Source: Pseudomonadota bacterium | GTDB lineage: Bacteria; Pseudomonadota; Alphaproteobacteria; Rhizobiales; Xanthobacteraceae | Assembly: GCA_023432885.1 (NCBI GenBank) | Contig: JAEZEU010000116.1 | Location: forward strand, 1-59,055 | DNA: 59,055 bases | Direction of reading: 5' to 3' | In this document: piece by piece, positions 40,437 to 58,312 of the stretch | Layout: each line of letters opens with the position of its first letter | Position numbering within the stretch: the stretch's first letter is position 1 | Made by a program: the position numbers and the translations under genes | Notes under the pieces: generated by a model | What the model was told of the DNA's origin: nothing | What the model saw: the letters and a program-made list of their open reading frames with translations, nothing else | The model's database searches: none

Positions 40437-40442
40437 CTAGGT

Positions 40443-40865: not shown

Positions 40866-40974
40866 GCTGAGATACCTCCTCACGGAAGACAAACTTCATG
40901 CCCAATCTCGTAGGTGCCGAGACTGCCGAGACCGCTAGAGGTTAGCTAAGGGGCAGTGGTGTGATCGTCTCGCA

Positions 40975-41003
40975 ATGAGAGAACAGAAAGAGAACATTGT
41001 CAA
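40975..41003 (-). promoter_or_regulatory. Sigma70 promoter with LexA box (copy 2)
   Basis: TTGACA-at-GTTC-tctttct-GTTC-TCTCAT; -10 weaker. Confidence 0.8.
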
Positions 41004-41189
41004 GACGAGAGGCTAACGGAATTCAGTTTCTCGGCAAGAACGCGAGCGCGATGATATCGCTCAACGTATGAGGCCGGCGTGAAGCGCTGCGAACCTAGCG
41101 GCTGCTGTCGGCGTACTGATCGCGGATAGACCCATCGGCGATCAGTTGACGCGTGCGGCCCTTGAAGCCTTCTCCCCTTGCTGCGCTTC

Positions 41190-41640
41190 CTGAGCATCAC
41201 ATCCTGAAACAGGCCAAGCAGGCCGCCCGCATACCCGTCGGTATTTGCGGATTCGGTGCCGATGTCCTCGATGCCGTTCGATGGCAAAGTGGCTAGAACC
41301 AGTCGGTCATATCTGCCTACTGATTGAGGTGACCGAGTGATGCAGTTGAAGCCGCTCCAGGAACGCATCAACTTCGTCCTGGCCTTGCGAATAGACCTCG
41401 AAAAGATCTTCGTCCTAACTCCACCGGCATAGTGGCGCGGGTTACAGCTCCAGAACATTTCGCGGGTGTTTGCCCATTGCTTCAAACTTCCGCTTCAGGT
41501 CCCTGCGACTGCAGACTTTCCCGTGGTCCGTTGAACGAATTGACCAGCATTCTCCTCAATAAGAATTCCAGTGGGTACCTCTCGCCCAACTTGATGCACC
41601 CATTGTTCAAATTCTTTGAATGCATCGGACGGTTCTATGA
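41190..41640 (-). pseudogene. Decayed cassette with internal stops and an orphan GGLLGL tail
   Basis: KFEAMGKHPRNVLEL*PAPLCRWS*DEDLFEVYSQGQDEVDAFLERL, then YAGGLLGLFQDVMLR in another frame. Confidence 0.4.
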
Positions 41641-41670
41641 GGCACTCCTATCGCAAAGGTTGCAGTCTCC

Positions 41671-41699
41671 AAAATAGAACAAATAAGGAACACTGTCAA
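41671..41699 (-). promoter_or_regulatory. Sigma70 promoter with LexA box (copy 3)
   Basis: TTGACA-gt-GTTC-cttattt-GTTC-TATTTT. Confidence 0.85.
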
Positions 41700-41756
41700 C
41701 ATGGACAAATCCCAACCGAGTGACGGCGCAGCCGACTGAAGAAGCCTGAACCACAC

Positions 41757-42374
41757 CTAGCGATCGAAGTTGCGCCACGTCTCTTCGTCCTTAGGCCCCC
41801 ATTCCGGTGGCTCATCCAGACGCGGACGCCCCTTATTTCTGTTGCAAAGATCCCGCCTGTTCTTCGCTCTCTCCAAGCAACCTGCAAGAAAATCTTGATG
41901 ATGATAATCATCAAGACGATCGCCGCATCGCCTGTTCTCTTTCCCGTACCGGCTATAGCAATCATTGTCGTCGTCTTCGTCACGAGCTCGGTCCCGCCTG
42001 CGACCGCCGCCGCCGCCGCCCCCGCCCGATAGGCGGCCTCGGAGGAATTCGAGAATTGGCCCCACTGCCTTTGACGCCGCCCCCGGATCGAATGGGATGG
42101 GTCGCGGGAATGGTCCCGGACGCGTTGACCCGAACCCTCCTCGGAAACCCGCCAGTACGGGGGTCGTGGTCGATGGCGCAGTCGGCTCGAAGCGGCCCTT
42201 AGATTGTTCGCCCGCGGCAATCTCTTGCAATTTTTCAACAAACGGCGCACGCGAGAGCTGCCTGTAATTCCAATTCTGACGCATCGCGTCTGAGCCCGAC
42301 TTTGGGTACGCGTTATCTCCCGCGTGCCCATTCACTTCATCGAAAAACAACTCATACAAACTTGGAGTGGCCAT
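41757..42374 (-). CDS. Cassette protein with Gly linker and C-terminal C-x10-C-x15-C-x10-C domain
   Basis: 205-aa ORF; TAATG coupling to the upstream gene. Confidence 0.7.
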   Translation of the reverse strand: MATPSLYELFFDEVNGHAGDNAYPKSGSDAMRQNWNYRQLSRAPFVEKLQEIAAGEQSKGRFEPTAPSTTTPVLAGFRGGFGSTRPGPFPRPIPFDPGAASKAVGPILEFLRGRLSGGGGGGGGRRRDRARDEDDDNDCYSRYGKENRRCGDRLDDYHHQDFLAGCLERAKNRRDLCNRNKGRPRLDEPPEWGPKDEETWRNFDR

Positions 42375-42799
42375 TAGTCCAGTTCCCTATCTAGAATAAC
42401 GTATCTTTGCTCATATCCATCTAGTGCACGCAGCCAGCCCTTGCGCCCGTAGAGACGGACGCAGGTGCAGCCTTCGTTCCTCGCGAATTCTTCAATCCGG
42501 CCGACCAAGCCCAGCCACCGCGGCATGTCATTGCCGCCGCACGCTGTAATCACGCACACTTTGCCCACATCGGTTCGTTGCAGGCGCGTCGAGGCCGCCG
42601 CAAGAACCGCGATGTTGCTCCCATCACCCACCACGGCGAGCCAGAGCAATGCATTGCCGCAGAGGATCTCCCGCTCAATATCGCAAAATGCCGAGAGGCC
42701 CGTCCGCTCTATCGCGCGACGCAACAGCGGTTCGGCAAGCGGCCAGACCTCGTGAACCCATGCGGGATCGACGCAGATCAGCTCAGCCGAGGATGGCAT
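42374..42799 (-). CDS. Phage protein with acetyltransferase-like fold (position of T7 gp13-like genes)
   Basis: VITACGG...IEEFARNEGC..VRLYGRKGW; follows the nozzle region. Confidence 0.65.
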   Translation of the reverse strand: MPSSAELICVDPAWVHEVWPLAEPLLRRAIERTGLSAFCDIEREILCGNALLWLAVVGDGSNIAVLAAASTRLQRTDVGKVCVITACGGNDMPRWLGLVGRIEEFARNEGCTCVRLYGRKGWLRALDGYEQRYVILDRELD

Positions 42800-43097
42800 A
42801 GAAGAACGTGCGGCCCGCCGTCGCGCTGTTCGCATGCGTGACCGTGAACGAGCCATTGGCGACAGCGCTCACATACATGGTGCCGCTGCCGAGCTCGGCT
42901 GCAGCGTTCGACGTTGCCGGTGTCAGGATCGGGGTGGAGCCGGCCGCGCAGTTCGGCGTCGAGACGGTCGTCGTCGAGGAACCTGTCGCGAGCGTCAAGC
43001 TGCCGACCGCATTCGAACGCCCGGCAGCGAGTTGCTGGATGGCGAGCACGATCTTCTTCAGATCAGTTTCGACGAGACCGGGAGCATAGGCTGTCAT
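42783..43097 (-). CDS. Small virion structural protein
   Basis: Thr/Ala/Ser-rich beta-type sequence; coupled to the nozzle gene. Confidence 0.6.
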   Translation of the reverse strand: MTAYAPGLVETDLKKIVLAIQQLAAGRSNAVGSLTLATGSSTTTVSTPNCAAGSTPILTPATSNAAAELGSGTMYVSAVANGSFTVTHANSATAGRTFFYAILG

Positions 43098-44566
43098 AGC
43101 GTGCCACTCGCTGTCAGGTCCGGCACCACGCCGGCGCAGAAGGACCAGGATGTCGCGGCTGGTATACGCACTCTGAACCGAGAATAACGGGTATCGCGCA
43201 TCACATCGCAGCGGCCGGTTCTCGGATTGACGAGCACCTCGCTGCCCGCGACGGCAGTCGCCGAGGGCGTGTCGCGATACGATACCGAGCCATACAAGGT
43301 TGCAGCGTCAGTGACCGGACGAAATCCACGGATCGTGATGCGATTGTCGTCTGTTCCCTGCTCTGCGCTCTCGATGGTCGCCTCCAGGCTCGTGCCGCGG
43401 AAGAAGCCGAGCGCATGAGAGCCGCTGAACTGGGCGATCTCCGGCTGCACGGCCGTCGCGTAGGCGTCGAGACTTAGCATCAACGCGTCCAGAGAGCTGG
43501 AAATGCTGTCGAGATTTTCCAGCGTCAGCCCGGTCTGGGACATACCGAGCAAAAATTCACCGGAAATCGATACCGGAAAGAAGCGGTCGAGCAGGAAATC
43601 GTATCCCAGCAATTTGTCGAAATTGCCGACCGCTCCCGAGACCGACTTGTACGCCCAGTAAACCCGCGTACTGCGCGGATCGGCTGCACCCATAAAAAGT
43701 TGCAAACTGCCCTTGTCGAGATCCGCGAGGAAGGTCCGGTCGACCTTCTCGCGTCCGATCTGCTCTGGCACGCCCCCCGGTTCGATCTTGTGAAATCCCT
43801 GCCCGGCGTAGAAGAAAATGCGCTCGCCAGCGCGGATGATCGAGTACGGCGCATACAATCCCTTGTCCTGGGTGATGCGGTCGATCTGAAAGATGATTGG
43901 CGATCCCGGCACGTAGGACATGCGCCTGATCGCCTGATCCTGGAAGATGATGCCTGACTCGCCGCCGGCGACGCCGCGAACGATGCCGCCGTCCGGAAAG
44001 TCCTGGAAGTCCGACGAATTGATGCCGCTGGTCCAGCTGGTGGCTGCATTGAAGTTGTTCAGTCCGGACCATTGGATCCGGTATGGCGTTGATAGCAGGC
44101 CGGACAACACCAAGAAGCGCCCGACCACGCTGATATAGGCAGCTTGAGGCGGCGAACCGGCAGCATCGGCAAATGCACTCGAAGATGAAAGATCGAAGAT
44201 TTGCAGAACCGTATTGGCCTGTGTCGCAAAGACGAAATTGCCGGTCTGCGCGAACTGCCACTGCGCGCTGGAGGAAAGCGCCGGATAAGTCGATCCACCC
44301 TTGGAGACATCGGCCCAGGTGAAATCCGTGTTGTTCAGCCTGTAAAGCTTGTCACTGGTGCCGGCAAACGTGACGACGGTCCCGTCGAATTTCAGTGCAT
44401 AGAATGCGCCGCGGCAGGGCGCCGGCAACGCCGCCGTGTAGGCCGAGAACGAGGGAAACGGACCGTAACCGTCGCCGCGCGGAATCACGTTTAGGATGTT
44501 GCGCGTCGCTTGTCCCTCATAGTCGCTGACGTCCGGACGATAATCGCCAATGGCAAGAAGGGGCAT
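43094..44566 (-). CDS. Podovirus tail nozzle/DNA stabilisation protein (P22 gp10/T7 gp12-like)
   Basis: 490 aa, beta-rich; RIQWSGLN, SDFQDFPDGG; position after adaptor and fibres. Confidence 0.7.
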   Translation of the reverse strand: MPLLAIGDYRPDVSDYEGQATRNILNVIPRGDGYGPFPSFSAYTAALPAPCRGAFYALKFDGTVVTFAGTSDKLYRLNNTDFTWADVSKGGSTYPALSSSAQWQFAQTGNFVFATQANTVLQIFDLSSSSAFADAAGSPPQAAYISVVGRFLVLSGLLSTPYRIQWSGLNNFNAATSWTSGINSSDFQDFPDGGIVRGVAGGESGIIFQDQAIRRMSYVPGSPIIFQIDRITQDKGLYAPYSIIRAGERIFFYAGQGFHKIEPGGVPEQIGREKVDRTFLADLDKGSLQLFMGAADPRSTRVYWAYKSVSGAVGNFDKLLGYDFLLDRFFPVSISGEFLLGMSQTGLTLENLDSISSSLDALMLSLDAYATAVQPEIAQFSGSHALGFFRGTSLEATIESAEQGTDDNRITIRGFRPVTDAATLYGSVSYRDTPSATAVAGSEVLVNPRTGRCDVMRDTRYSRFRVRIPAATSWSFCAGVVPDLTASGTL

Positions 44567-45168
44567 TACTCTACATCCCATGTCTCGGATTGCTTGTCGG
44601 CGTGGGTCCAGGGCATCGGTTGATTGCCCTGGATGCTCCAACCGGTTGGCAGGCCCGCATTCGGATTCCAGGTTGATTTCTCGATTGCCCGTATTGACCA
44701 GTCGTCGGAATCAAAGGAGCGTGGGATCCAAGCCTCGAAGTCCCGTATGAAGGAGGCATTCGAGGCAGCAGTGAAATAGCTGTCCCCACTCGACGCCAGG
44801 GAAGTCGCGAACGATTGCGAACCGCCCGCTATTCCGTAGCTGCCTGCCGCGAGGGAATGCCTGACGCCGAAGGCTCCCCCAACCGTATTGGCTGAACAGT
44901 TGCCGAGACCCGCTGAAACGGTAGTTCGAACAATGGCTGGCGTACCGGCGACAGCGAACACGACGGAGCCGGCCGCGTGCTTGATATTCAATGCGGCGGA
45001 AACGGCCGTTGGCGCAAATGAGCCCGAGACAGCCGCCTGCGTGAACTTGAACGTCGCCGCCCACCCGGTTGCGGACGACAAGCCGCGTGCAGCCATGAGC
45101 GCAGCGGAGCCCGCTGCCGGGAATTGCAACAGGCCGTAGCGGCCGAGCGTGTCAAATCCGAGAAGCAT
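44566..45168 (-). CDS. Virion structural protein
   Basis: MLLGFDTLG, Ala/Gly-rich, Trp-repeat C-terminus; coupled to the nozzle gene. Confidence 0.55.
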   Translation of the reverse strand: MLLGFDTLGRYGLLQFPAAGSAALMAARGLSSATGWAATFKFTQAAVSGSFAPTAVSAALNIKHAAGSVVFAVAGTPAIVRTTVSAGLGNCSANTVGGAFGVRHSLAAGSYGIAGGSQSFATSLASSGDSYFTAASNASFIRDFEAWIPRSFDSDDWSIRAIEKSTWNPNAGLPTGWSIQGNQPMPWTHADKQSETWDVE

Positions 45169-45188
45169 CTTCCGCCCTGTCCACTACT

Positions 45189-46058
45189 TTACGGCGCTAC
45201 GCGCGCGCCATAAGCGAACGACTCAAACGCTACATCTCCACGCACGTCCCGCGCTGAGGCAGTTTCGTGATAGATGTAAAACTCAAGGTAATCGGTACTG
45301 CCGTTCAGATCGACCAGGCAGGTGACCGCACAAGTGCCGGTGTTGGTCACCGCACCCATCGTGTCGCGACCGCGCTTCCATTCCGAACCGTTCTTGAAGA
45401 CGGACACGAAATAGGTGATGCCGGCTGGAATGTTGAGCAGCGTAATCGAACAACCAACATGATATTTGCCGGCAACGGCGGGCTGAAACCTGTAGTTGGT
45501 CGCGTTGTCGAACGCTCCAGCTGTGTCCCATTCCTCGACATTGAACTGTACCTTGGTCTGTATGCCGGAAGGAATGGATTGCGTACCGCTGCGACGGACG
45601 TGGAATGAGGGAATGTCCGCGACGCCCGTACCGCCTTCGGCCACTGAAACGGGCGTGCTCAATCCAATGTTGGACTTTGCCTGCGTCTTCTGCGCCGCGG
45701 TGAAGCTGTTGGCCTCCTCGACCGAAATCAAATCGCGCTTTGAGGCGACTACCCATACCTGCGGTGCCACGGTGAAGCTGATCTTCGCGCCCGCCCCGCC
45801 CTGCAAGGTTCCGGTGCCGGCCGAGTTATAAAGCACCGTGGTCCGGGCAAACGAGCCCGCGCCGGCCGAGCTATATGCGCCTTCCGAAACTTCCCATTGC
45901 GTCAAATCGGCGCTTTCAGCGCGCACTTTGTAGACGCGGCCGTTTACGGCGCCGGCGGCTGCCGGCGAAATGTACGGACTTACCGTGGACGAATACGTCC
46001 AATCGGCAGTCCCACCCGCCGCGGCGATGAAGCGGCAGAGATCGAGAAAAGCAGCCAT
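45189..46058 (-). CDS. Tail fibre/receptor-binding protein with C1q-like C-terminal domain
   Basis: QKTQAKSNIG, VAEGGTG; FDNATNYRFQPAVAGKY...LVDLNGSTDYLEFY. Confidence 0.75.
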   Translation of the reverse strand: MAAFLDLCRFIAAAGGTADWTYSSTVSPYISPAAAGAVNGRVYKVRAESADLTQWEVSEGAYSSAGAGSFARTTVLYNSAGTGTLQGGAGAKISFTVAPQVWVVASKRDLISVEEANSFTAAQKTQAKSNIGLSTPVSVAEGGTGVADIPSFHVRRSGTQSIPSGIQTKVQFNVEEWDTAGAFDNATNYRFQPAVAGKYHVGCSITLLNIPAGITYFVSVFKNGSEWKRGRDTMGAVTNTGTCAVTCLVDLNGSTDYLEFYIYHETASARDVRGDVAFESFAYGARVAP

Positions 46059-46059
46059 T

Positions 46060-46491
46060 TTAGGTGATCGTCAGAATGCCGTTGGTCTGGTCAAGGTCGA
46101 CGGTGAATGTATTGCCGTTGGTGAGTGTGATCGGCACGCCATAGTCCCACCACCCGATCAACGGTTTGGTCGCCGATGTGGAATTGTAGAGTACTGCGTA
46201 CTGAAACGGTCCGATCGAGCCGCCTGACGCTGTCCAGGCTGGATCCGCAGCGCCGAGAAATTTGAACGTGCCCGATGTCTGCGATCCCGTGATGGCGCCG
46301 ATCGAGGCGCCGCCCGATGAATAGCCGTTGGCGGCGGAAAGATCGGCCGGCGTGTTGTAGACCGTATTCGTCACGGACGGCGCCGTGCTGGTGAGATAGA
46401 CCTTGTAGACATGAGAGGTCCCCGTCTTCATGTCGTGCAGCGCAGTGGCAATGTCCTGCACGAAGCAATTGAATTTGTTGAATGCCGCCAT
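46060..46491 (-). CDS. Virion structural protein
   Basis: MAAFNKFN..., WTASGGSIGPFQYAVLYN, LIGWWDYG. Confidence 0.7.
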   Translation of the reverse strand: MAAFNKFNCFVQDIATALHDMKTGTSHVYKVYLTSTAPSVTNTVYNTPADLSAANGYSSGGASIGAITGSQTSGTFKFLGAADPAWTASGGSIGPFQYAVLYNSTSATKPLIGWWDYGVPITLTNGNTFTVDLDQTNGILTIT

Positions 46492-46501
46492 TGTATCCTC
46501 G

Positions 46502-47155
46502 CTAGACTACCAGACCAGAGACACGAACCGTCATCGGCCCGGCATTGAAAGTTGACGTCAGCCCCAGACCGTTGAGGTCGTTGATCGCCGCGGTGAACCC
46601 GAGGCCCCAGGTCTGGATGCGGCCGTCTTCCTTGATGTACGGCGCCGACTCCAGTAGCGCGCCGTACAGATAAAGATCAGGCGCCACCATCAGCAGCCAG
46701 TTCGGATCACTTTCGGCAAGCGGCGGAATATTCCGCCGGTACACCATTTCAATGGTGTAGGCAGCATCCGGCGTCGGAGCGATCTCGAGTTCGTCACCAA
46801 ACACCGTGAAGTAGCGCGGCCGGCCGCTGACGTTGAACGTCTCGAACCGGTACTCGTCGATCTGCGCACCGGATCTGAACTCGAGCGCCGGCTTCCCCGT
46901 GACGCTGGACAGGCGAACTCGGCGCATCGACTGGAAGTCGGATGGCAGCGAAATGAACTCCGGCTCGCTGCAAGCGAGGTTGACCAACGCCGTCGCGCGC
47001 TGCTCCATCTGCCTCACAAAGAGCTGGCGGTTGAACTTGGCTTCGGCGAGCTGGATGAAAGTCGGAATCCGCGCAATCAGCGTTGGGTCCTGATCTCTCG
47101 CCAAATATTCCGTCACCGCCGATTGCAGCGACGCGTAGTCCACGATTTGCGTCAT
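46502..47155 (-). CDS. Head-tail adaptor (tail tubular protein A-like)
   Basis: IPTFIQLAEAKFNRQL, LPSDF, APTPD, APDLYLYGAL. Confidence 0.8.
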   Translation of the reverse strand: MTQIVDYASLQSAVTEYLARDQDPTLIARIPTFIQLAEAKFNRQLFVRQMEQRATALVNLACSEPEFISLPSDFQSMRRVRLSSVTGKPALEFRSGAQIDEYRFETFNVSGRPRYFTVFGDELEIAPTPDAAYTIEMVYRRNIPPLAESDPNWLLMVAPDLYLYGALLESAPYIKEDGRIQTWGLGFTAAINDLNGLGLTSTFNAGPMTVRVSGLVV

Positions 47156-47484
47156 TTCAGCTCCGCTAACCAGCCGGCCTGTAGCCGCGGCCGGTCGGTT
47201 CGCAAGTAGGCCCATTCCGGATCATTGAGCTTCTTCTGCACGACCCGGTCGAAATCCGGTGTGAACATCCGTAAGCCGGTGTTGCCCCGTGCATGCTCCT
47301 CATCCAGCCACCGGACGTAAATGACATTGGGAATGCGCGCGATGTGCCGGCCCCATTCGGAGCGTTGCTCCTCTCGGCGCGCCTCCCTGTTCCATTGCAG
47401 AATCGGTTCGACGTCCTGCACGTGCTCGATCACGAGATCCTGGCCGTTGCTGTCGAGATGCGGCCGGATCAAGACACCGTCCAT
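47152..47484 (-). CDS. Conserved-type phage head-region protein
   Basis: QDVEPIL...WGRHIARIP...KKLNDPEWAYLRT. Confidence 0.7.
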   Translation of the reverse strand: MDGVLIRPHLDSNGQDLVIEHVQDVEPILQWNREARREEQRSEWGRHIARIPNVIYVRWLDEEHARGNTGLRMFTPDFDRVVQKKLNDPEWAYLRTDRPRLQAGWLAELK

Positions 47485-47795
47485 CACGACATCTCCGTGA
47501 TCCAGAGGGTGCCGGCTGTTGCCGTGACCAGACCGTTGGTCGCGGCCTTGATCGCCGATATGCGCTGACCGGGGCTGACGATGACGTACTCGATCACATA
47601 AGCCGGCAGAAAGTTGTCGGCGTTCGTGGCCGTCTGGGCACCGTCGCCGATCCGGTAGCAGCAGGCTGCATTGGAGACCAGGCGCAGCTGATAGGTCCCG
47701 GGTCCGAACGCGTTGGCAATCGCGGCGCTTGAATCGAAGGCGATAGTCTGGGTTACGCCGGCGCGCGAAGCGTGTTGTTTGGGAAAGAACGACAT
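47484..47795 (-). CDS. Small beta-rich virion protein
   Basis: Coupled ORF ending GTLWITEMS. Confidence 0.65.
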   Translation of the reverse strand: MSFFPKQHASRAGVTQTIAFDSSAAIANAFGPGTYQLRLVSNAACCYRIGDGAQTATNADNFLPAYVIEYVIVSPGQRISAIKAATNGLVTATAGTLWITEMS

Positions 47796-47796
47796 T

Positions 47797-48159
47797 TTAG
47801 GCAGCCCTCACAGCTACGGAGAAATGCATGGGAACTGCGGAGCCGGACGCGCCAGACGGCGTCAGGGCGATGACGTCGTCTTCGTTCAGGTAGGCCGGCG
47901 AAGGCGGCGTGGCCGTAAATAGCTGACCTGCGGCAGAGCCCGCTTGCGTCACGGTGAATGTGGCGAGCGTGGTGGAATTTGCCGACACTGTTACGGTCGC
48001 GTTGGCGGTGGTAATCGCTCCCCCGAGTACGCCCGTAGCCCTCAAGAGGCGACAGCGGAACGGCACGCGGATATAGGCGGCGACGGGCGATGCCCCACAG
48101 GAGGGCGTATAGGCCGTGAGATCGATAGTATTGAGCGTATGATGGCCGGGAAGCGGCAT
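47797..48159 (-). CDS. Putative capsid decoration protein
   Basis: 120 aa, Ala/Thr-rich, immediately after the capsid terminator; GGAG RBS. Confidence 0.6.
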   Translation of the reverse strand: MPLPGHHTLNTIDLTAYTPSCGASPVAAYIRVPFRCRLLRATGVLGGAITTANATVTVSANSTTLATFTVTQAGSAAGQLFTATPPSPAYLNEDDVIALTPSGASGSAVPMHFSVAVRAA

Positions 48160-48171
48160 TTTCAGATCTCC

Positions 48172-48200
48172 AAAGAGAAAGGGCGGCCCGAAGGCCGCCC
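48172..48200 (-). terminator. Terminator after the major capsid gene
   Basis: GGGCGGCC-TTCG-GGCCGCCC followed by TTTCTCTTT. Confidence 0.85.
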
Positions 48201-48224: not shown

Positions 48225-49187
48225 TCAGGACGATGTGTTGTCGAACACGCCGCCGGAGGCTTTCTCGTTGCGGGCAACGAGCGCATATTCCGCCAGGATC
48301 TGGCAACGATCGGAGTCGCCCGTCTTGGCCAGCGGGATCGAGATCATGTTGCGGCCGTTGAGATATGCCACCGCCCACTTGTCCATCTCCAGCACGAGCA
48401 CGTCGCGCGGGCGCTGAAAGCGGTTGGCGATCACCTTCAGCTTGCCGAAATCGGACTCATAGGCGTCGACGGAGGCGACGATCTTCTTCGATTTCGCCTC
48501 TTCGATCGCGCTTGCCCGGCCGGTAAAGGTCGAGAACACCTGCTTGTTGAAGGCGCCGGTCATGATCGTGCCAGGCTTGCCGCCGTTGCTCCAGATCGAA
48601 GACAGCACCGACTTGAGCCGCGCCTCGGTGAACGCGATCTGCGTGCCATCCGTTCGCGTGCCGGTGCCGTCGGCCGCGGCCGGATCGGCGGCACCGCCAG
48701 CCGTCCCCTTGGAGGTGTTGGAGGAGATCCACGACAGCACCGATGCCGTCTTGCGTGGCGTCGAAGTGTCGCCGACCACCTTGGCCTGGTTGGTGCCGAC
48801 CAAAATGGTCTCGATATCGCGCTTCAGCTCGAGGCCCTTGAGCATTTCCTGATAGGCAAGCTCATTGTCGCGGCCAGCGTGATCGACCGCCTGCTGCGTG
48901 CCGGAGACGCGGGCCACCTTGTAGGAAATCTGACAGAGATTGCCCAGCCGCACGGTAGGCGTCGTAGCGGTCGTGGTGGGGTCGTCGCCTTCAAGCTGAG
49001 CGTTGGCGCTTGACGCCGGGGCGAGCGCCTGCGTCTGCCATTCATGATTGACCGCAGTCGCTTTTTCCTTCTCGGCGGCGCTCATGAAGGGCGTATCGGT
49101 CGGGTCGATGCGATAGATCATATCGGAAAGATCTTCGCGGTTGCCGACCGCCTGGTAGGTAACAAAAGTAGAAGCCGGTAAGGCCAT
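48225..49187 (-). CDS. Major capsid protein (DUF5309/SU10-like)
   Basis: GNREDLSDMIYRIDPTDTPF, HEWQTQAL, ELKRDIE, YESDFG, LAKTGDS. Confidence 0.88.
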   Translation of the reverse strand: MALPASTFVTYQAVGNREDLSDMIYRIDPTDTPFMSAAEKEKATAVNHEWQTQALAPASSANAQLEGDDPTTTATTPTVRLGNLCQISYKVARVSGTQQAVDHAGRDNELAYQEMLKGLELKRDIETILVGTNQAKVVGDTSTPRKTASVLSWISSNTSKGTAGGAADPAAADGTGTRTDGTQIAFTEARLKSVLSSIWSNGGKPGTIMTGAFNKQVFSTFTGRASAIEEAKSKKIVASVDAYESDFGKLKVIANRFQRPRDVLVLEMDKWAVAYLNGRNMISIPLAKTGDSDRCQILAEYALVARNEKASGGVFDNTSS

Positions 49188-49604: not shown

Positions 49605-49904
49605 TCAAAGAATCCCAAAGCGCTTCCTTCGCTCCGCCGTCCGCGCGAGCTCCGCCAGTTCTGCCTGCGCCAGCCTGCCGTTGGCAAGGATGGCGTTGAG
49701 ATGATCGCGCACCTTGCCCACCACGTTGATGGCGAGGAACAGCTTTTCGCGGCCCTGCACATCATCGATCGCGGTGGAACGCCACGCCGACGCATAACTG
49801 TCTTCCAGCGTCTTGAACGCGTCAGTGAGCAGTTCGTTGTCGAGAAGCTCCTGCGCTTGCAACGCCCTGGCGCTAGCTGCGGCAAGATGGCTTTCGTCAG
49901 TCAT
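49605..49904 (-). CDS. Small phage protein following the portal
   Basis: AQELLDNELLTDAF...REKLFLA; overlaps the portal-C stop. Confidence 0.75.
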   Translation of the reverse strand: MTDESHLAAASARALQAQELLDNELLTDAFKTLEDSYASAWRSTAIDDVQGREKLFLAINVVGKVRDHLNAILANGRLAQAELAELARTAERRKRFGIL

Positions 49905-51591
49905 TGGCGCACCCTTTGCATTCCTGTGTCGTCGCGCCTTGATGGCTTGCGGCCGCAGCTGCCGGATCGAGCGCCGCCTCAGCCACCTCCATTTCGTGAT
50001 GCGTCTGCGCGTGATCGAACTTCTGCTGCTCCATTGCAGCCTTCAAATGCGCATCGAGCACTTTCATCCTTGCGTGGATCTCCGCCTTGACCTTGGCGAT
50101 CTCGATCTCGGCCTGGGCCTTGATCTGCTGATGAATCGCATCGTTCTGCGCTCGCTGTTGCTCGGCCTGCGCCTTGTGCGCGGCGGCGGCCTGGTCGGCC
50201 TGCGCTTTCGCGTGCAACGCAAGCACCCTTGGATCGGGTGGCGACGATGGCGGCGGCGATGGCGGTGCCGGCGGTGGATGCAGGAGCTGGCCTGTGCGCG
50301 GATCGCGTGCGGTCGGGTCGTTGAAGAAGCGGTCGGGGTTCTTGTGGCCCATGATCCGCGTCAATTCGGCTGCGGTGTTGTAGAGCTCGCGATCGCCGAC
50401 CAGGTGGAGCTTGCCGCCCATCACCAGTTCCTTCTGGATATTGGCCAGCGCCATGGCTTGCGCGAACTGGGCGGCTTTGCCGCCGCTGCCAAGACCGACA
50501 TTGATGGTCATGTCGTTGCGCGTCTTCCAGTTGCGTGGGTCGACATCGACCCACGCGTTGCGCAGCCGCACGGTCTGCAGCTGTTGGCCGTGCTTGCGGA
50601 TAGTCCCGTGCAGGAGGGCAAAGATGTCGCGCACGCCCTCCGCCATGATCCGCGCGATCAGCTTGATGCGCATCTGCGAGGCGGAAAACACTTGGGCAAC
50701 GGCCGTCGCGGACTGGTTTTGCAGCGCATTGGCATCGATCCCCTGCGACTGCCTGCTGAGACCCGTGCGCGCCTCGAGTTCGGCATCAAGGTACTGCATC
50801 ATCGGATAGATCGACGAGGTGATGTCGGGCACCACCTGCCAGTTCAGGCCGCCCGGCGTCTTGGTACGCACGACTCCGCCGGGCCGCGACACCAGGAGAT
50901 CGTCCAGCGTGTTGGGGCCGGCGTTGGCTTCTGACACCTCGACCCGAGGGTTGTTGTGCAGATAGAGATTGTCCAGCGCAGCGCGCTTGAGCGCCGTCTT
51001 CTCCCGCTGCAGCGGCATCACGAGATCCGCGATCGAGCGGCCGAAGAAGCGATGCGTCATCGGGACCGGCGTCGTTGTCGCAAACGGGATGCCATCGAAC
51101 GGCGTGATGCATTCGCGGCCGTCTTTGCGCAGGATCTCGCCTTGGTCGCCGCCGGTGACGACTTGATAGAGGCCCGGCCGCCCGTCGCCCTCATAGTCCA
51201 TTCGCACATAGTGCTCGGTGATACGAACCAGCCGCGCCGCCGAATTGGCGCCGCCCACAGTCGTTGCGAAATGCTCGCCGGTGGTGTTCCGCGCCAGCGT
51301 TTCGCTGTCGGTACTGCCGGTGTAATCGCCGAGCGCCCTCACCTGGGTGGCATCAAAGCCTTCGGCGATCAGCTGCGCTTCCGTCTTGGTCACCACCTCG
51401 TGGAAGCAGTAATTGCAGTCACGGATGCTGCGCGCACCGCGCTCGATGCCGAACTCTTCCGGCGGCACGCCGAGCACCTTTGCCTGCGCAAGCTTTCGCG
51501 TGGTGACAATGGTGACGTCGTGCATGGCCGGCAAGGCCAGCGGCGCCGGCGACACCGGGGAAACAGGAGCGTTCATTTTCATGGATACCAT
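49897..51591 (-). CDS. Portal protein, C-terminal part
   Basis: HDVTIV, VPPEEF, PMTHRFFGRS, LDNLYLHNNP, SRPGGVVR, NVGLGSG; Q/A-rich coiled tail; start 51576-51591. Confidence 0.85.
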   Translation of the reverse strand: MVSMKMNAPVSPVSPAPLALPAMHDVTIVTTRKLAQAKVLGVPPEEFGIERGARSIRDCNYCFHEVVTKTEAQLIAEGFDATQVRALGDYTGSTDSETLARNTTGEHFATTVGGANSAARLVRITEHYVRMDYEGDGRPGLYQVVTGGDQGEILRKDGRECITPFDGIPFATTTPVPMTHRFFGRSIADLVMPLQREKTALKRAALDNLYLHNNPRVEVSEANAGPNTLDDLLVSRPGGVVRTKTPGGLNWQVVPDITSSIYPMMQYLDAELEARTGLSRQSQGIDANALQNQSATAVAQVFSASQMRIKLIARIMAEGVRDIFALLHGTIRKHGQQLQTVRLRNAWVDVDPRNWKTRNDMTINVGLGSGGKAAQFAQAMALANIQKELVMGGKLHLVGDRELYNTAAELTRIMGHKNPDRFFNDPTARDPRTGQLLHPPPAPPSPPPSSPPDPRVLALHAKAQADQAAAAHKAQAEQQRAQNDAIHQQIKAQAEIEIAKVKAEIHARMKVLDAHLKAAMEQQKFDHAQTHHEMEVAEAALDPAAAAASHQGATTQECKGCAND

Positions 51592-51658
51592 CTGAAGAAG
51601 CGGCTGACGGCGGTGGACTTGCCGTCCTGTCGAAGCGCGAATGGGAGCCAATCCCGCT

Positions 51659-52210
51659 CTAGTTGCCGCGAAGCGAATTGTAGCGCAGATATTCCCAAAT
51701 GAGGTCAGCAAGCCCGCCGGCTGCTGCCAAATCTGGATCCTGAGGATCGTTGAGTCCGGCTTCAAGTAGCAGGCCTGGAAGGCCGCGCGGCACATTGTCA
51801 GTAGCAGGACGAACGAAACGCATGGGAGACGCGCCCATTCCGAAAGCACCGGGTCGATCGTTGACCTTACCTAGCGGCTTGGAGCTCGGTCCGGGGAAAT
51901 CGTACTCAAACACATTGTTCCGATTACGTATGTTGGCGTGAGTAGCGGAATCGCGCACTATGACGTCGGCTGCTGCAGGTTCGTTGGGAGGCGGATCGTA
52001 GTATCTCTCCCAATAGGCGGGATCGGATGTGTAAAGGGTCCAGGCGTCAGCATAGTCCGGAATCCGGAAGTCCCGCTTTATCCGATCTGCATACTTCTCT
52101 GGCGCGTTTGCTTCATCGCTGAAGAGACTGGCCCCGAGCTTGCTCCCCAACCTCTTGAAAGGTTGTCGCGCGACTTCCTTGAGAGCCTGTCTAGCGATAA
52201 AATCCCACAT
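51659..52210 (-). CDS. Cassette protein with type II tail
   Basis: Ends PRGLPGLLLEAGLNDPQDPDLAAAGGLADLIWEYLRYN. Confidence 0.7.
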   Translation of the reverse strand: MWDFIARQALKEVARQPFKRLGSKLGASLFSDEANAPEKYADRIKRDFRIPDYADAWTLYTSDPAYWERYYDPPPNEPAAADVIVRDSATHANIRNRNNVFEYDFPGPSSKPLGKVNDRPGAFGMGASPMRFVRPATDNVPRGLPGLLLEAGLNDPQDPDLAAAGGLADLIWEYLRYNSLRGN

Positions 52211-52311
52211 GAACTAAACCCCGCACGGATGAAACGAGCGCTCAGCGCTCGCAGCTGCTCGTCCTTAGGAAACAGACAGGTTTGGGCGCTGGCAGGCCTG
52301 GTACCGACCGA

Positions 52312-52566
52312 CTAGACAGAAAATCCAATCAATAGGCTGACCAAGAGCAACAACATCAGGCCGGCCGCGAGTCCGATCACGGCCGTCAATGACGTTTCTA
52401 TCTCAATCTGTCCCACTTCATCGCGGCGATAGCCGAACCAATTGAACTTCCCCATCGGCCCCGTCAGCGGCTCGGCACGCGCTCGTCCAAGGGAAATCAG
52501 CGGCAGCAGGAGCCGCCCTATTGGATAACCAACCACTTCAAGCAGGAAATCCATGAGTATCGTCAT
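52312..52566 (-). CDS. Small 2-TM membrane protein (cassette partner)
   Basis: GAGGT RBS; two hydrophobic segments. Confidence 0.7.
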   Translation of the reverse strand: MTILMDFLLEVVGYPIGRLLLPLISLGRARAEPLTGPMGKFNWFGYRRDEVGQIEIETSLTAVIGLAAGLMLLLLVSLLIGFSV

Positions 52567-52574
52567 ATCGCACC

Positions 52575-53009
52575 TCAGCTCGCTCGTGCTGCCTGCGTGT
52601 CGCTGCGCTTGCGATTGCCGCTTAGGTATTCCTGAAGAAGCGCGACAAGGCCGTGTGGAGCCGAAAACTCGAAGACGCCTGCTCGCTCCAGCATGCCGAG
52701 CAGCCCTCCGGATGGGCGGCGGGCAAATTCACTCATCGAGTTCAAACTGTCAGGTGGCACGGACTGTGTGAGCGGCAGTTCGAACGAAGGGCTGTACGTT
52801 GGCGCCCCTGTTATCAGGTGAGGACGAGACGGCGGATCAACCTCGATCGGGGCCGGTATAATCGGGTCCGGTTCATCCGGTATAACCGGGACCGGATCAT
52901 ACCAGTTCTTGCCCCGCGGCGCCGGTGGCGGAAGAAACCACCGCCAATCTACTGGCGGTGGTGCCTGCCGCTTCTGTCCGGAGTCGGGCTGATCAACCGA
53001 GCGCGCCAT
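52575..53009 (-). CDS. Pro-rich cassette protein with type II tail
   Basis: Ends PSGGLLGMLERAGVFEFSAPHGLVALLQEYLSGN; GAGGA RBS. Confidence 0.7.
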   Translation of the reverse strand: MARSVDQPDSGQKRQAPPPVDWRWFLPPPAPRGKNWYDPVPVIPDEPDPIIPAPIEVDPPSRPHLITGAPTYSPSFELPLTQSVPPDSLNSMSEFARRPSGGLLGMLERAGVFEFSAPHGLVALLQEYLSGNRKRSDTQAARAS

Positions 53010-53143
53010 GGGGCGTCCTCAAACTGCAGGTGGACAATATACAAAGATTCTCGGCGTATGATTTTGGATCAGGACCCGCGCGCAACCGGACTGGATTTTT
53101 TTGCCAGCTGATGAATTGGATCATTGTCCCCACGGGATCGACA

Positions 53144-53953
53144 CTAAGGATCGTAGATCACTCTTCCAAGACCTCGTCGCGCCGCCATCTTATCCACCTC
53201 TTCCTGGCTTTGAGGATAGGCCTCGTAGAAGATCTTTGCCTTGAACAGAACAGGATAGTATCTCGGGTGAAGGGTCCACAAGACATCGCGAAAGACGCCG
53301 GTGTCCCCGTACAAGTTTCTCAGAATCCTTCTCACGTAAAGGCTGTCCGGAGGATGATCGAATAACGGATCGATTACTCTCTCCGCAAAAAACCGCGCCA
53401 CTTCAGGCGAATACCCCGCGCCGTGCTCGCCGCCGGGTCGACACGACCCACGTTGCAGCTTCTTTAGCTTGCCGTCCGGGGGTTCGATCACATACGTACA
53501 ATCGGGGCGGGCGGGATCAACGCTTCGAGGGTAGTGCCAGGCGACCAAGACTCCCTTCAACACATAGCTCTGATGCGACGCAATAAGAAAAAAGCTCGCG
53601 CAGGCTGAGAGGCAGTAGCCATGGACGACCACCGTCGCTTGACGGTCGCGAACAATGCGCGAAAGCGCCACCGCAACGTCCGGGTTTCCTCCGGGGCTCC
53701 TGACGACAAAGAGCCCATTCTCCTTCAGACCCAGTGCCGAGGACACATCCAAATCATCTGTAGCTTTACCGTCAAAACACAAGATCTGCTCATCAGGACT
53801 GAGCGCCATCGGCCGCGATACGTTGCCGCGGCAATATTCCACGGCGCGGTAGTACCGTTCCCTGTCAAAATCCTGCTCAGCGCGGCTATGACCCGAAGAA
53901 AAAAGGAGCCCCCAGGCCGCAACAGCAAGAAGACATCGTGCTTCCCCGCTCAT
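53144..53953 (-). CDS. Exported ClpP/crotonase-fold protein (COG3904-like)
   Basis: Signal peptide; VRSPGG, CLSACA, VAWH. Confidence 0.7.
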   Translation of the reverse strand: MSGEARCLLAVAAWGLLFSSGHSRAEQDFDRERYYRAVEYCRGNVSRPMALSPDEQILCFDGKATDDLDVSSALGLKENGLFVVRSPGGNPDVAVALSRIVRDRQATVVVHGYCLSACASFFLIASHQSYVLKGVLVAWHYPRSVDPARPDCTYVIEPPDGKLKKLQRGSCRPGGEHGAGYSPEVARFFAERVIDPLFDHPPDSLYVRRILRNLYGDTGVFRDVLWTLHPRYYPVLFKAKIFYEAYPQSQEEVDKMAARRGLGRVIYDP

Positions 53954-53973
53954 CAAAGCGCAAGGTCTGCCCG

Positions 53974-54141
53974 TCAGGACTGATTAGACCGAGCAGGCCG
54001 CCGGAGGGCCGCGCGGGGTAGTCGATAGTTCCGCTTTATCCGATCAGCATACCTCTCGCCCTCATTCAGTTCAGTAGGCCAGCGCGTAGCAGCCTGGCCT
54101 GTGACGGAACCAAGTTTCTTCCTCAAGAAGTGACCGCGCAT
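53974..54141 (-). pseudogene. Truncated paralogue of 51659-52210
   Basis: GGAGG RBS; KKLGS...ELNEGERYADRIKRNYRLP versus KRLGS...EANAPEKYADRIKRDFRIP. Confidence 0.65.
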
Positions 54142-54398
54142 GCGAACCTCCGTCACGGCGACGACGGCCCCGAGAATGCAAGTGGGCGTAACACAGGGCA
54201 CCGGATACGTGGGCGATGCAGTCGCGCCTACCCGGCGCAACCGGCATCCCGAGCCGTAATTCAAACAGCGTGCCCGATTCCGAGCACATGATCCTCAATG
54301 TCGCACGCGAGGCCAATCGTCCTAATAACCGTCATGGGAAACAACGAATTCATCTGCATTGCCAGACCTGTCAGTTTGGCGAACTTCCATCTTTGGTT

Positions 54399-54427
54399 GA
54401 TATAGAACAAAACACGAACTGTGTCAA
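54399..54427 (-). promoter_or_regulatory. Sigma70 promoter with LexA box (copy 4)
   Basis: TTGACA-ca-GTTC-gtgtttt-GTTC-TATATC. Confidence 0.85.
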
Positions 54428-54577
54428 TTTCCGTGCATGTGAAGATGCGGAGCGAGAGATGCATGTGGCAGAATGATCGCCGACTTGCACCGGCGCCACG
54501 CACGATGCCGCACGACACAAACTGCTTGAGGGAAAATGGTTGCTGCGAGCTTCGATCCACCTCCCGGGAGGAGACCT

Positions 54578-54627
54578 GTTGCGCAGATCCTCTGAATCAG
54601 TCCGGAAAGTCCACCAGGCTCCGGCGG
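54578..54627 (-). pseudogene. Orphan type II tail remnant
   Basis: PPEPGGLSGLIQ then, after a 1-nt deletion, DLRN (compare GGLADLIWEYLRYN). Confidence 0.55.
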
Positions 54628-54907
54628 GCCTGAATAGCGCGGACCGGAGAAGCCAGGGAAGAGTCACAAAATGGGACCGGACTTGAAATGAAGAAGCATC
54701 AGGTCAAAGCACTATTGGTTGCTTGAATGCCCTACTCACCTTCAGTGTCTGGACCGCTTTCGGACGTTGCGTTGCGTATTTCCTTCTCGGACCAAAGGGA
54801 ATTCTGATGGTACTTGCGGCTATTCCGGTTATGCGCTTCGCAGACTTCTTCCACGACGTCTTCGCACCCCGCAAGAAGTAGCTGATGCTGTTGGCGAGAG
54901 CTGATCT

Positions 54908-55471
54908 CTAAACGACAGCGTCCTTTCTTTCTGCCTCATGCACCGTGTGCTCGATGATCTTAATCGCACCACCGGATTCCGCCACTGCCTGCGCCAGCAG
55001 CGCGAACTGATCATCGGTCAGATCGTAATACGTCTCCCGGCTTTCCTCCTCGCGCTCCTCCCACCAAACCTTGACGATACCGACCTTGGAGAGCAGCGCG
55101 TCCTTGATGAAGGAGTAGAGGATCATGAAGCCCGGGTTCTGCTGCATGAAGACGTGATTGACGTAATCCGTCTCCTGCTGCGCCGCTGCCTCGTCCTCAG
55201 GACCGACCGGCTCGAAACGCACGACTTCGTCGCCGCCGGCGAAGATATCCATCAAACCCGGCATCATGCCTTCGATGGTATCGGCGACTTCGGTCGACAC
55301 GGCGCGTGAGCGGCCATCCTGCGCTGGCATGTCCTTGCGCATGTCGCCAAGATAATAATCCATCGCATCGGCGCGATCTTCCATCAGCTTGGCTGCGGAG
55401 ATCGCTGCGAGTGCGCCTGCCTTCTCGGCCGCGAGCATCGCCTTGAGGTCGGATGTCGACATTTTGGGCAT
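54908..55471 (-). CDS. Portal protein, N-terminal part
   Basis: AMDYYLG, GRSRAVSTEVADTIE, FEPVGPEDEAAAQQETDYVN, KDALLSKVGIVKVWW; own stop after KIIEHTVHEAERKDAVV. Confidence 0.85.
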   Translation of the reverse strand: MPKMSTSDLKAMLAAEKAGALAAISAAKLMEDRADAMDYYLGDMRKDMPAQDGRSRAVSTEVADTIEGMMPGLMDIFAGGDEVVRFEPVGPEDEAAAQQETDYVNHVFMQQNPGFMILYSFIKDALLSKVGIVKVWWEEREEESRETYYDLTDDQFALLAQAVAESGGAIKIIEHTVHEAERKDAVV

Positions 55472-56705: not shown

Positions 56706-58016
56706 TCACCTCCACCCATTCTCCGCATAACGGATCGGCCGGTTGAAATTTCCCGCCCTGTCCGGCTCTTCGTAACAGATCGCCATCAGACCCAGCGCGT
56801 CCGCGGCGTGACTTGACCAGTCGTGCTCCGGTCCAAGGCCGATGTTGCGCTCATCGTCTTTGCGCTCGTGATAGAACCCGATCGCATCGCGCCCTGCTTC
56901 GGTCGTCGCCTCGTTCCACCAGATCTGGGGCCCAAGCCGGCGCAATGCTTCGATGCGCATCATCGCGGCGCCCCTGCCCTGGTTCTTCACCGGCGGTTCG
57001 ACCGCAAAGCCGGCATCGCGCAAATGATCCTCATAGCGCTTGCCGGTGATGTTGTTGGCGGCGACGCCGTCATGCGGCAGATAAAGAATCGCATTCTGGT
57101 AGCCGCGCGAGCGCAGCCAGTTGACGTGAAAAGCCAGCACCTGCCCGACGCTCTCATAGTAGTCGAGCACGCGGACCTGGTTGCCGGCCCACTGCACGAT
57201 CCAGATGGTAAAGGCGTCGGCGGTTGCGCCGGCGCCGCCGATGTCGATGAAGGCGCGCAGTGGCAGCAGCGGATCGGCGGCGACCTTTCCGATCCTGCCT
57301 TGCGCCCTCGCCTCCAACAGCATGGTCGCGAAGTACGCGCCCTCGAAAGCCTTCACGTAGTCCCCTTCCCAGATGTGCTCGTAGCGATGGGGATAGAGTT
57401 CTAGATCAAGGCTCCGCTCTTCCTCGAGCACCGAAGGAAACCACGGATTGTCGCGCCAGCTCGCCTTCACTACGATGGCGCCGGCGGGCTGGCGCGCACG
57501 AAGAAAATCATCGATCGCGTCAGACTTGCGGCAGGGATTCCAGCTCGCCCACAGCTCGGAATTTTTCGCGCGGATGGTCGGCCGCAGCAGCGCCAGACTG
57601 CGAGCGCTCAGCGACTGCGCCTCGTCGATCCAGGCGATGCGGAAACCTTCCAGCGACTTGATTGATTCGGCCGTGTGATCCTGCATTCCGCGAAAAATGA
57701 TGACGCCGTCGCCGGGCGTCTCGATCTTGTCGGTGAAGATCCTAAAACCCTGGCCGAGACCGAGCGAAACGATCTTGCTTTCGATCAGCCGCTTGCTCGA
57801 TTGCGCTAGTGTGCGCTGCGCCTCGCGAATGCAGACCGCAAGCGTGCCGCGCTCGGCCTGGCAGGTCTCGACCAGCAACTCGCCGAAGAAATGCGACTTG
57901 CCGGACCCGCGCCCGCCGTACACGCCCTTGTAGCGCGCTGGCTTGAGCAGCGGTTCGAACGCTTTTGCTGTTGGGATTTTCAGAGTGGACAATGGCAGGC
58001 TCGATGCGACGGGCAT
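56706..58016 (-). CDS. terL: Terminase large subunit (PBSX-like)
   Basis: Walker A GGRGSGKS, Walker B WIDEA, SWNP, nuclease DIG...HDWSSHAADA. Confidence 0.93.
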   Translation of the reverse strand: MPVASSLPLSTLKIPTAKAFEPLLKPARYKGVYGGRGSGKSHFFGELLVETCQAERGTLAVCIREAQRTLAQSSKRLIESKIVSLGLGQGFRIFTDKIETPGDGVIIFRGMQDHTAESIKSLEGFRIAWIDEAQSLSARSLALLRPTIRAKNSELWASWNPCRKSDAIDDFLRARQPAGAIVVKASWRDNPWFPSVLEEERSLDLELYPHRYEHIWEGDYVKAFEGAYFATMLLEARAQGRIGKVAADPLLPLRAFIDIGGAGATADAFTIWIVQWAGNQVRVLDYYESVGQVLAFHVNWLRSRGYQNAILYLPHDGVAANNITGKRYEDHLRDAGFAVEPPVKNQGRGAAMMRIEALRRLGPQIWWNEATTEAGRDAIGFYHERKDDERNIGLGPEHDWSSHAADALGLMAICYEEPDRAGNFNRPIRYAENGWR

Positions 58017-58312
58017 CAGTTGCTCTCATCGGGCGCGCAATCGCGCTCTTGATCCAGCATCTTCCCGGTCGAACCTTCGGGATGAACGATCACGCGCTCG
58101 ATGCGGTGAATCATCTTGAGCGGATCGTCTCCGCTTTGCAGCGGTTGCGCCGCCTTGCCCCAGCCGCGATCCAGGATGGAGTTCGCGGCCGAGACGCGCG
58201 CGGCAGGCGTCGCATCGTTCGAGCGCATGATGCCGACCAGCACGTTGATCGCGGTCCTGGTGTGACTCCGCGCGATGGAGCGGATTTCGGTCAGGGTTTT
58301 GGCTCGTCTCAC
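58016..58312 (-). CDS. Terminase small subunit-like protein
   Basis: ARVSAANSILDRGWGKAAQ; TGATG coupling to terL; GTG start. Confidence 0.75.
   Translation of the reverse strand: MRRAKTLTEIRSIARSHTRTAINVLVGIMRSNDATPAARVSAANSILDRGWGKAAQPLQSGDDPLKMIHRIERVIVHPEGSTGKMLDQERDCAPDESN

Follow-up and report, generated by a model that had tools for sequence, protein, structure and literature searches.

A Portal Protein Encoded by Two Genes in a Phage-Derived Head-Tail Module of Bradyrhizobium with Candidate Toxin Cassettes

The portal of a short-tailed-phage head and tail module was analysed in a stretch of 59,055 nucleotides from a bacterium of the Xanthobacteraceae (assembly GCA_023432885.1, contig JAEZEU010000116.1), which is referred to at its full length as the window. 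The portal is encoded there by two separate genes, and comparison with relatives indicates that it is very probably a two-chain protein: the break recurs at the same place, it has one origin in the portal tree, purifying selection acts on both halves, and a prophage reported to be packaged into virions carries a split portal with no gap. These results support the functional two-chain portal that an initial annotation of the window, made from the DNA letters, had proposed. The combined explanation, in which this portal belongs to a domesticated module with tagged toxin cassettes, is regarded as fairly probable.

Portal Genes and Position of the Cut

As listed below, the window portal is of the SU10 type and consists of two clean minus-strand open reading frames (ORFs) of 187 and 564 amino acids (aa), between which an insert of 3,316 bp (51592-54907) is located.

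54908..55471, minus strand: portal N chain, 187 aa; matches PF23899 positions 2-163, PaP3 portal residues 30-161 and SU10 portal residues 39-175; dN/dS 0.094
49897..51591, minus strand: portal C chain, 564 aa, without the C-terminal hook described below; matches PF23899 positions 175-590 and PaP3 portal residues 183-680; dN/dS 0.173

The N-chain ORF ends in EAERKDAVV before its stop codon, and the C-chain ORF starts with its own ATG and a proline-rich leader followed by HDVTIVTTRK; an alternative ATG at 51582 would yield a protein of 561 aa. The two ORFs score 188 and 421 bits against PF23899 (SU10_portal, 593 positions), above the curated cut-off, and cover positions 29-178 and 198-701 of PHROG 1216, while the C chain is collinear with residues 186-692 of the SU10 portal in the alignment to the solved structure. 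An SU10-type portal is thus matched over the family length, with two polypeptides in place of the single one of that type. The collinearity of the halves with PF23899 and with the PaP3 and SU10 portals agrees with the initial annotation, in which the portal lay in two clean ORFs; no part of the portal is missing. The two halves are the only portal-family matches in the window's genome assembly, which is 88% complete.

No Rfam match was obtained in the region 29000-59055, and no Pfam transposase, intein or homing-endonuclease match was obtained in the seven insert ORFs scanned, none of which has any Pfam family; the absence of such signals from the insert, noted earlier by eye, was therefore borne out. 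A mobile intron, intein or insertion sequence interrupting the portal was ruled out, because there is no such Pfam or Rfam match and the reading frame is not restored. The tRNA and promoter scans of the element gave nothing above chance. A search of sequencing runs returned one matching run, with a share of 0.06, and no RNA run was among the listed matches.

In single-chain relatives, the seam corresponds to a loop of 5-71 residues (16 of 23 sequences parsable) between a strand with the motif IVxHT and a strand with the motif HDVT, so the break does fall in a variable loop, as the initial annotation had placed it. In the AlphaFold2 model of L027, a naturally re-fused relative described below (mean pLDDT 74), strands at residues 170-178 and 198-217 enclose a low-confidence loop, and the best Foldseek matches of this model are the Pa223, SU10 and PaP3 portals. 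The model suggests that the two seam strands pair and that the cut lies in the portal wing, at about PaP3 residues 162-182.

Evolution of the Divided Portal

A total of 160 loci with the N half were retrieved, 80 from genomes and 80 from viral contigs. The portal is broken in the same loop in 131 of the 143 loci with both halves and is single-chain in 12, in a set that keeps duplicates and is biased to close relatives. A profile search of 388 Bradyrhizobium genomes gave a portal match in 84, among which 50 have a separate C-half match starting at profile positions 146-197 and 5 have a strong unbroken single-ORF match, many others being partial. In other genera of the family, strong portal matches are nearly all single ORFs.

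The portal tree was computed from 115 distinct sequences (92 split and 23 single-chain) after exclusion of duplicates, loci containing N, incomplete C halves, L041 and L082. The 92 split portals without exception fall into a single clade (FastTree support 1.0) that is nested among single-chain portals, which indicates one origin of the recurrent break, and the single-chain portal of L027 (10001-12136) is located deep inside this clade as a natural re-fusion. The N chains are 180-212 aa and the C chains 519-583 aa long across the split portals. The gap between the halves measures −1 to 322 nt in the 11 basal split members; in the 81 derived members its median is 1.7 kb and its maximum 7.0 kb, with 69 above 150 nt. 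Since basal temperate phages without an insert are already split, the split preceded the cassettes, and cassette insertion was ruled out as its cause.

Both chains are constrained: the median pairwise dN/dS among the 81 derived members is 0.094 for N (3,059 pairs) and 0.173 for C (3,236 pairs). Between the window and its nearest relative, L111, the values are 0.020/0.454 (0.04) for N and 0.072/0.492 (0.15) for C. The N and C distances are correlated (r = 0.86), where the best of 500 permutations reached 0.31.

A gap-less split portal is encoded by Bradyrhizobium phage ppBeUSDA76-2 (OP596614, locus L202), where chains of 184 and 553 aa overlap at TGATG with no insert and are 84% and 69% identical to the window halves. 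In its GenBank record, the N half (19031-19585) is annotated as a hypothetical protein and the C half (19585-21246) is unannotated; a nozzle-matching gene at about 27004-28716 is likewise missing from the annotation. Passages of PMC10127595 describe OP596614 as a spontaneously produced podophage and report prophage regions enriched 60,000-150,000x in DNase-treated particle DNA, with a background of about 35x; the word "portal" was not found in the main text of that paper. The phage has the same split and the same head and tail gene set as the window, but it is a true temperate phage with integrase and recombination genes. Its genes and the reported particle DNA suggest that it is the strongest evidence that two chains work, and the particle report, together with the fold of L027, points to a dodecameric ring for the split portal.

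Two further kinds of broken portal were observed. A distant portal (L210, genome G153) is broken elsewhere, at profile positions 479/480, by a frameshift or a second kind of split, and about ten genomes (e.g. G368, G384, G242 and G375) retain only profile positions 2-117, a recurrent truncation point.

Cassettes at the Portal Seam

The insert of the window contains two cassette pairs (270 + 144 aa and 84 + 183 aa) and remnants, as listed below.

54690..54881, plus strand: small membrane ORF, first insert element; 60% identical to the ORF at the same position in L111; no Pfam family
53974..54560, minus strand: remnants of decayed cassettes; 54027-54057 is a repeat of 52069-52099, within the 183-aa tagged gene
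53144..53956, minus strand: 270-aa ClpP-like protease homolog with a signal-peptide-like start, candidate immunity partner; PHROG 26024 protease, E 4e-7
52575..53009, minus strand: 144-aa proline/tryptophan-rich protein with the C-terminal tag, candidate cargo; tag E 4e-5; no family
52312..52566, minus strand: 84-aa membrane protein with two helices, candidate immunity partner; homologs in 29 loci (37 ORFs)
51659..52210, minus strand: 183-aa protein with an amphipathic-looking N-terminus and the C-terminal tag, candidate cargo; tag E 2e-10; no family

In the 71 seam inserts (about 172-173 kb), one cluster of 199 ORFs lies entirely on the portal strand. A hidden Markov model (HMM) of a C-terminal tag with the consensus GGLLG[LM]IQ[DE]Y[ML]R gave 85 same-strand matches in the inserts (55 of 71 loci); the flanking DNA gave 15 upstream (589 kb) and 7 downstream (466 kb), where the insert-derived seeds favour the inserts. 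Among the 37,676 ORFs of the window's genome, its matches were limited to the two ORFs of the insert and a weakly scoring one elsewhere in the element; the strict regular expression misses both window ORFs, and the HMM finds both. The tagged proteins fall into 30 N-terminal families (83 ORFs). By a crude hydropathy measure applied to different spans, a strongly hydrophobic N-terminus is found in 0 of 71 tagged proteins and a hydrophobic segment in 23 of 34 assigned upstream partners.

The composition of the pairs recurs as well. Homologs of the 84-aa gene lie directly 5′ of homologs of the 183-aa gene in 12 of 15 cases, and the 270-aa protein, for which an Atlas lead gives CLP_protease on 11% of members, has 21 homologous ORFs in 17 loci, mostly followed by proline/tryptophan-rich ORFs. 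The nearest relatives, L111 and L115, have both the break and cassette families in common with the window. In Pfam, 4 of 30 cargo candidates matched an M23 peptidase, two of them below the curated cut-off, and 2 of 16 cassette partners matched the Ivy lysozyme inhibitor; most partners and cargo proteins have no family. A seam cassette is probably a toxin-like/immunity-like pair, in which a gene for a membrane or secreted protein is joined to a gene for a tagged protein. Neither cargo protein of the window has a family, and both are putative toxins.

About nine gene boundaries of the module are of variable length, the portal seam among them, and the others are fixed; the seam is therefore not a unique hotspot. 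The initial annotation had taken the split point for a cassette insertion hotspot; the seam does carry cassettes, but it is one of several such slots, and the cassettes did not cause the split.

The Slot behind the Portal and the Satellite Locus

In relatives of the window, a second tag occurs behind the portal: the ORFs that carry the N-terminal motif SLVPV[DE]HQPDF are all (58 of 58) located after the portal C gene and on the same strand. The C-terminal domains of these tagged ORFs are of the WHH, HNH, NucA/NucB, colicin-DNase or Tox-ART-HYD1 type, and SMI1/KNR4 or ComJ genes follow. Where a tagged gene abuts the portal, the C-terminus of the portal is replaced by a 30-residue hook. Of the 92 C chains, 41 end in the hook; a tagged gene is adjacent in 39 of these versus 2 of the 51 without it, and the hook occurs in 0 of 23 single-chain portals. 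The window has neither the hook nor a tagged gene after the portal, whereas L111 carries the two together.

In cyanophage Pam5, gp12 (annotated as tail lysozyme) terminates in the same hook and gp13 starts with the same N-terminal tag; from their position and annotation, both would be ejection proteins. A complex prediction for the hook and the N-terminal tag (alignments of 39 rows) gave a score of 0.24.

A satellite locus with tagged toxin/immunity cassettes was observed between phosphomannomutase and aspartyl-protease genes (L303-L314, e.g. L303:7722-13116), by which exclusivity of the N-terminal tag to the element was ruled out. The post-portal slot thus has the parts of a polymorphic toxin system: a trafficking part, a variable toxin domain, an immunity gene and orphan cassettes.

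Gene Layout and Inheritance of the Module

The head and tail module is encoded on the minus strand, between about 58.3 and 30.7 kb of the window. Its genes other than those of the portal and its insert are as follows.

58016..58300, minus strand: small terminase-like gene (the ORF call extends to 58636); PHROG 15261; kept upstream of the large terminase gene (TerL) in 12 of 12 regions
56706..58016, minus strand: large terminase, 436 aa, intact; Pfam Terminase_3/6N; median dN/dS 0.13
49605..49904, minus strand: conserved 99-aa gene after the portal; PHROG 8161
48225..49187, minus strand: major capsid protein (MCP); PF17236 SU10_MCP; dN/dS 0.11
42374..48200, minus strand: head decoration, adaptor (46502-47215), fibre, nozzle (43094-44566) and small tail genes; PF24175, PHROG 2941/3287; order conserved
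39456..42374, minus strand: second cassette slot of the window copy, with 205-, 149- and 326-aa ORFs and remnants; no Pfam family
38264..39334, minus strand: pilot or first ejection-type protein with an S74 domain; PF13884; 54% identical to the prophage homolog
37653..38264, minus strand: 203-aa remnant; aligned weakly by blastp to a phage ejection-type protein of 496 aa, in its N-terminal ~150 aa only
36429..37637, minus strand: displaced scaffold homolog; 35% identity over 88 aa to the prophage gene between the 99-aa gene and the MCP gene
30665..35720, minus strand: collar tail fibre (33696-34703), lysin-like and holin-like genes and a terminal GNAT gene; PF07484, PF00583; host genes beyond

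The lysin and holin labels are based on position and the look of the sequence, with no family match, and the terminase is the sole phage gene named by NCBIfam among those scanned. The scaffold homolog now lies 11 kb farther downstream, and its former place between the 99-aa and capsid genes (49188-49604) is a variable slot. A GDSL/SGNH-like hydrolase gene (33056-33703, plus strand) lies between the collar fibre and lysin genes. Between terminase and portal, a slot contains two ORFs on the opposite strand (55483-55902 and 56237-56638, plus strand), of which the 133-aa membrane ORF is similar to an opposite-strand family found repeatedly in the inserts.

In the 11 long regions, the gene order is fixed as small terminase, large terminase, portal N, portal C, 99-aa gene and MCP, ending in lysin, holin and GNAT, with the scaffold homolog displaced. 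Among the loci whose upstream DNA exceeds 6 kb, early genes of a related prophage, used as the single query, occur upstream in 7 of 10 basal ones and in none of 40 derived ones; in the 11 long regions only two regulators were found, and none of these regions has the two large ejection-type proteins of the prophage. The derived element is therefore no intact temperate prophage. Loci L072 and L075 carry other replication genes.

A block of a small gene, a repressor gene and a Q-like gene lies 15-38 kb upstream in 7 of the 11 long regions. Upstream of the terminase genes, the window contig continues for only 0.4-0.7 kb, and in its genome the block is found on contig C382, whose end overlaps the window end by 453 bp at 97%. 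As observed on that contig (locus L315, 3886-6249), the block consists of the small gene, an HTH-S24 repressor gene, a 181-aa ORF, which we take to be GcrA-like from its motif, and a Q-like homolog of the prophage late regulator. The DNA 5′ of the small terminase gene (L315 15094-18346; window 58200-59055) contains several repeats with 78-97% identity and forms another cassette array, which is probably why the assembly breaks there.

The recurrent host neighbours are a CoA-transferase gene in 9 regions and a phasin gene in 7. The portal distance follows the gyrB distance in 21 derived genomes (rho 0.73 and 0.78, p 0.0005) and not in 8 basal genomes (rho −0.11 and −0.05). All 22 module genes tested have a median dN/dS of 0.08-0.28, and the core genes of the window are all open. 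The module thus shows the vertical inheritance and purifying selection of a non-replicating module that characterize a gene transfer agent (GTA). The window belongs to a derived clade that appears to represent a domesticated head-tail-lysis module, and from its genes this module is likely to produce particles.

In another group of loci (L083, L087, L090, L098 and L080), host rather than replication genes lie upstream of the portal, some with a displaced terminase, and some carry toxin-like/immunity-like cassettes of their own (DUF6572, DUF416); these are possibly independent domestications.

Proposed Mechanism

A stop-start pair would have arisen once in a surface loop between two wing beta-strands of an SU10/PaP3-type portal in temperate Bradyrhizobium podophages. 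The two genes would be translationally coupled, and the N and C chains are very likely to co-fold into one subunit, twelve of which would form the ring. One such phage may then have been domesticated in the Bradyrhizobium chromosome, with loss of the two large ejection proteins and of the genes for integration and replication, while the repressor/Q-like regulator block and the terminase, head, short tail and lysis genes would have been kept under purifying selection. Gene boundaries of the late operon, including the portal seam, would have become slots for exchangeable cassettes, each with a tagged cargo lacking a signal peptide and a membrane, periplasmic or cytoplasmic partner. The tags would direct the cargo into the head, where it would substitute for the ejection proteins that were lost. 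The particle would inject toxins of wall-lytic, membrane-active or nuclease type into related cells, probably together with packaged DNA, and the partner would protect kin.

It seems rather more probable than otherwise that the module forms a capsid-based toxin-delivery or transducing particle, and we hold to a similar degree that the tagged proteins are loaded into it and that killing results. A vertically inherited capsid-based toxin injector with the portal seam and C-terminus as docking sites, ejection-protein tags on the toxins and satellite cassettes loaded in trans has about an even chance of being correct.

Several observations weigh against this explanation. The element is known here from its DNA sequence alone. 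The C-chain ORF of the window has no clear Shine-Dalgarno sequence. The portal match is confined to 84 of the 388 genus genomes, several of which keep portal fragments only, and decay is common, with lost or frameshifted core genes in 3 of the 11 long regions (G034, G291 and G014). The 183-aa and 144-aa tagged ORFs of the window match no toxin family in Pfam or PHROG, and an Atlas search of the 183-aa cargo gave leads of 0.76 only. Any Pfam match was obtained in just 5 of 30 seam cargo candidates and in 32 of 110 post-portal slot ORFs. The seam-tag HMM finds nothing in the two true phages tested, OP596614 and Pam5. Of the 388 genus genomes, 44 contain the N-terminal tag; 24 of these have a portal match, and in the 20 that lack one the tag lies at the host locus beside the phosphomannomutase gene, where the 12 regions examined have no phage genes but one small portal fragment. 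Finally, the single-chain relatives L087 and L098 also carry cassettes, and the split was therefore ruled out as a requirement for cargo.

Alternative Explanations

It is unlikely that the module is mainly a GTA or lateral-transduction device in which the toxin/immunity pairs hitch-hike, as addiction or kin-recognition modules, and stay out of the particle. The large terminase, intact in 12 of 12 regions at the dN/dS given above, the lack of replication genes and the vertical inheritance fit such a device, and passages of PMC10127595 report a B. japonicum strain with podophage-like particles whose DNA maps evenly over the genome, which bears on the module if that strain carries it. However, if the cargo stays cytoplasmic, it is hard to explain why tags are common to toxins and phage ejection-type genes, why the portal C-terminus is swapped together with the adjacent toxin, and why proteins lacking signal peptides have secreted or membrane partners. 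The transfer-agent reading is compatible with toxin delivery; since the terminase is retained, DNA packaging is likely, and transfer-agent activity may coexist.

Still less likely is a slowly decaying prophage, in which the split was functional ancestrally, the window copy is silent and the cassettes serve immunity or another secretion route. The patchy presence of the portal, the frequent partial losses and the tagged toxins at the satellite locus in portal-less genomes would agree with decay, whereas the co-divergence with gyrB extends across the genus at dS near 0.75, the structural genes all remain under the purifying selection given above, and the window keeps its core genes open and its portal chains constrained relative to L111.

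The two-chain portal itself would be in question if a single chain were restored by splicing, read-through, frameshifting or protein trans-splicing, which is very improbable. The 1-nt stop/start overlap in 11 of the 92 split loci could be bridged by a frameshift, and one natural re-fusion exists. However, the gaps reach 7 kb, occur in all three frames (39/29/24 over the 92 loci) and contain genes on both strands, and every C gene has its own ATG and leader, with no Rfam or intein match. An assembly chimera or a strain-specific pseudogene, conceivable for a fragmented assembly, is refuted as a general explanation by the recurrence of the break in complete isolate genomes and in L111 and L115, and its probability is negligible.

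Significance

The two-chain portal of a particle-producing phage defines a permissive cut site and a way to probe wing assembly, for which the re-fused L027 is a ready control of function. If the proposed role of the module is true, it makes the long-standing, unproven delivery of toxins from phage heads testable in cultured and harmless symbionts of soybean and soil; it also supplies short candidate loading tags and bears on inoculant competition. The module is a candidate source of unexplained short-tailed or apparently tailless Bradyrhizobium particles. Passages of PMC11599138 report many apparently tailless icosahedral particles from Bradyrhizobium cultures, and a link of the module to these is a conjecture.

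Comparison with Known Systems

No description of a two-gene portal or of this module was found in the literature searched, which did not cover subscription journals. Phage portals are normally single-chain dodecamers. The halves analysed here are collinear with the single-chain SU10, PaP3 and Pa223 portals (PF23899; PDB 7z44, 7sxk and 9nwm), and the re-fused relative has a similar predicted fold; the difference is that two genes encode the portal here and that some copies have a swapped C-terminal hook.

Toxin loading into capsids was proposed for MuF-bearing prophage remnants in passages of PMC3482391, and muf genes directly after portal genes, mostly in siphophages, are described in passages of PMC5576092. 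The MuF toxins resemble the present system in the toxin gene right after the portal, the proposed head loading, the immunity genes and the occurrence in prophage remnants; a toxin gene directly downstream of the portal with an immunity gene is found in relatives of the window and not in the window copy. No Pfam match to a MuF domain was obtained in 22 + 59 + 110 proteins, where the custom MuF3/MuF4 profiles of PMC5576092 were outside the search. The present module differs further in its podophage type, its short N- and C-terminal tags, one of which is common to ejection-type genes, its several slots and its vertical inheritance.

The RcGTA, the Bartonella GTA and PBSX are chromosomal, non-replicating head-tail-terminase modules under purifying selection with a separate regulator block, and these features are common to the module described here. 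It differs from them in its short-tailed SU10-type ancestry, its split portal and its toxin cassettes, and any transfer of DNA by it is hypothetical.

Tailocins, extracellular contractile injection systems (eCIS) including Photorhabdus virulence cassettes (PVC), and the effector-immunity arrays of type VI secretion systems (T6SS) are phage-derived weapons with polymorphic effector/immunity pairs and orphan satellite cassettes. Such pairs and satellite cassettes also occur with the present module. However, a tailocin or eCIS is a headless tail without terminase or portal, whereas the present module keeps capsid, scaffold, portal and terminase, and no sheath, tube or baseplate match was found among the module genes scanned. 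If the injector proposed above exists, which we judge to be evenly balanced, it would be a head-and-portal counterpart to tailocins, eCIS and T6SS.

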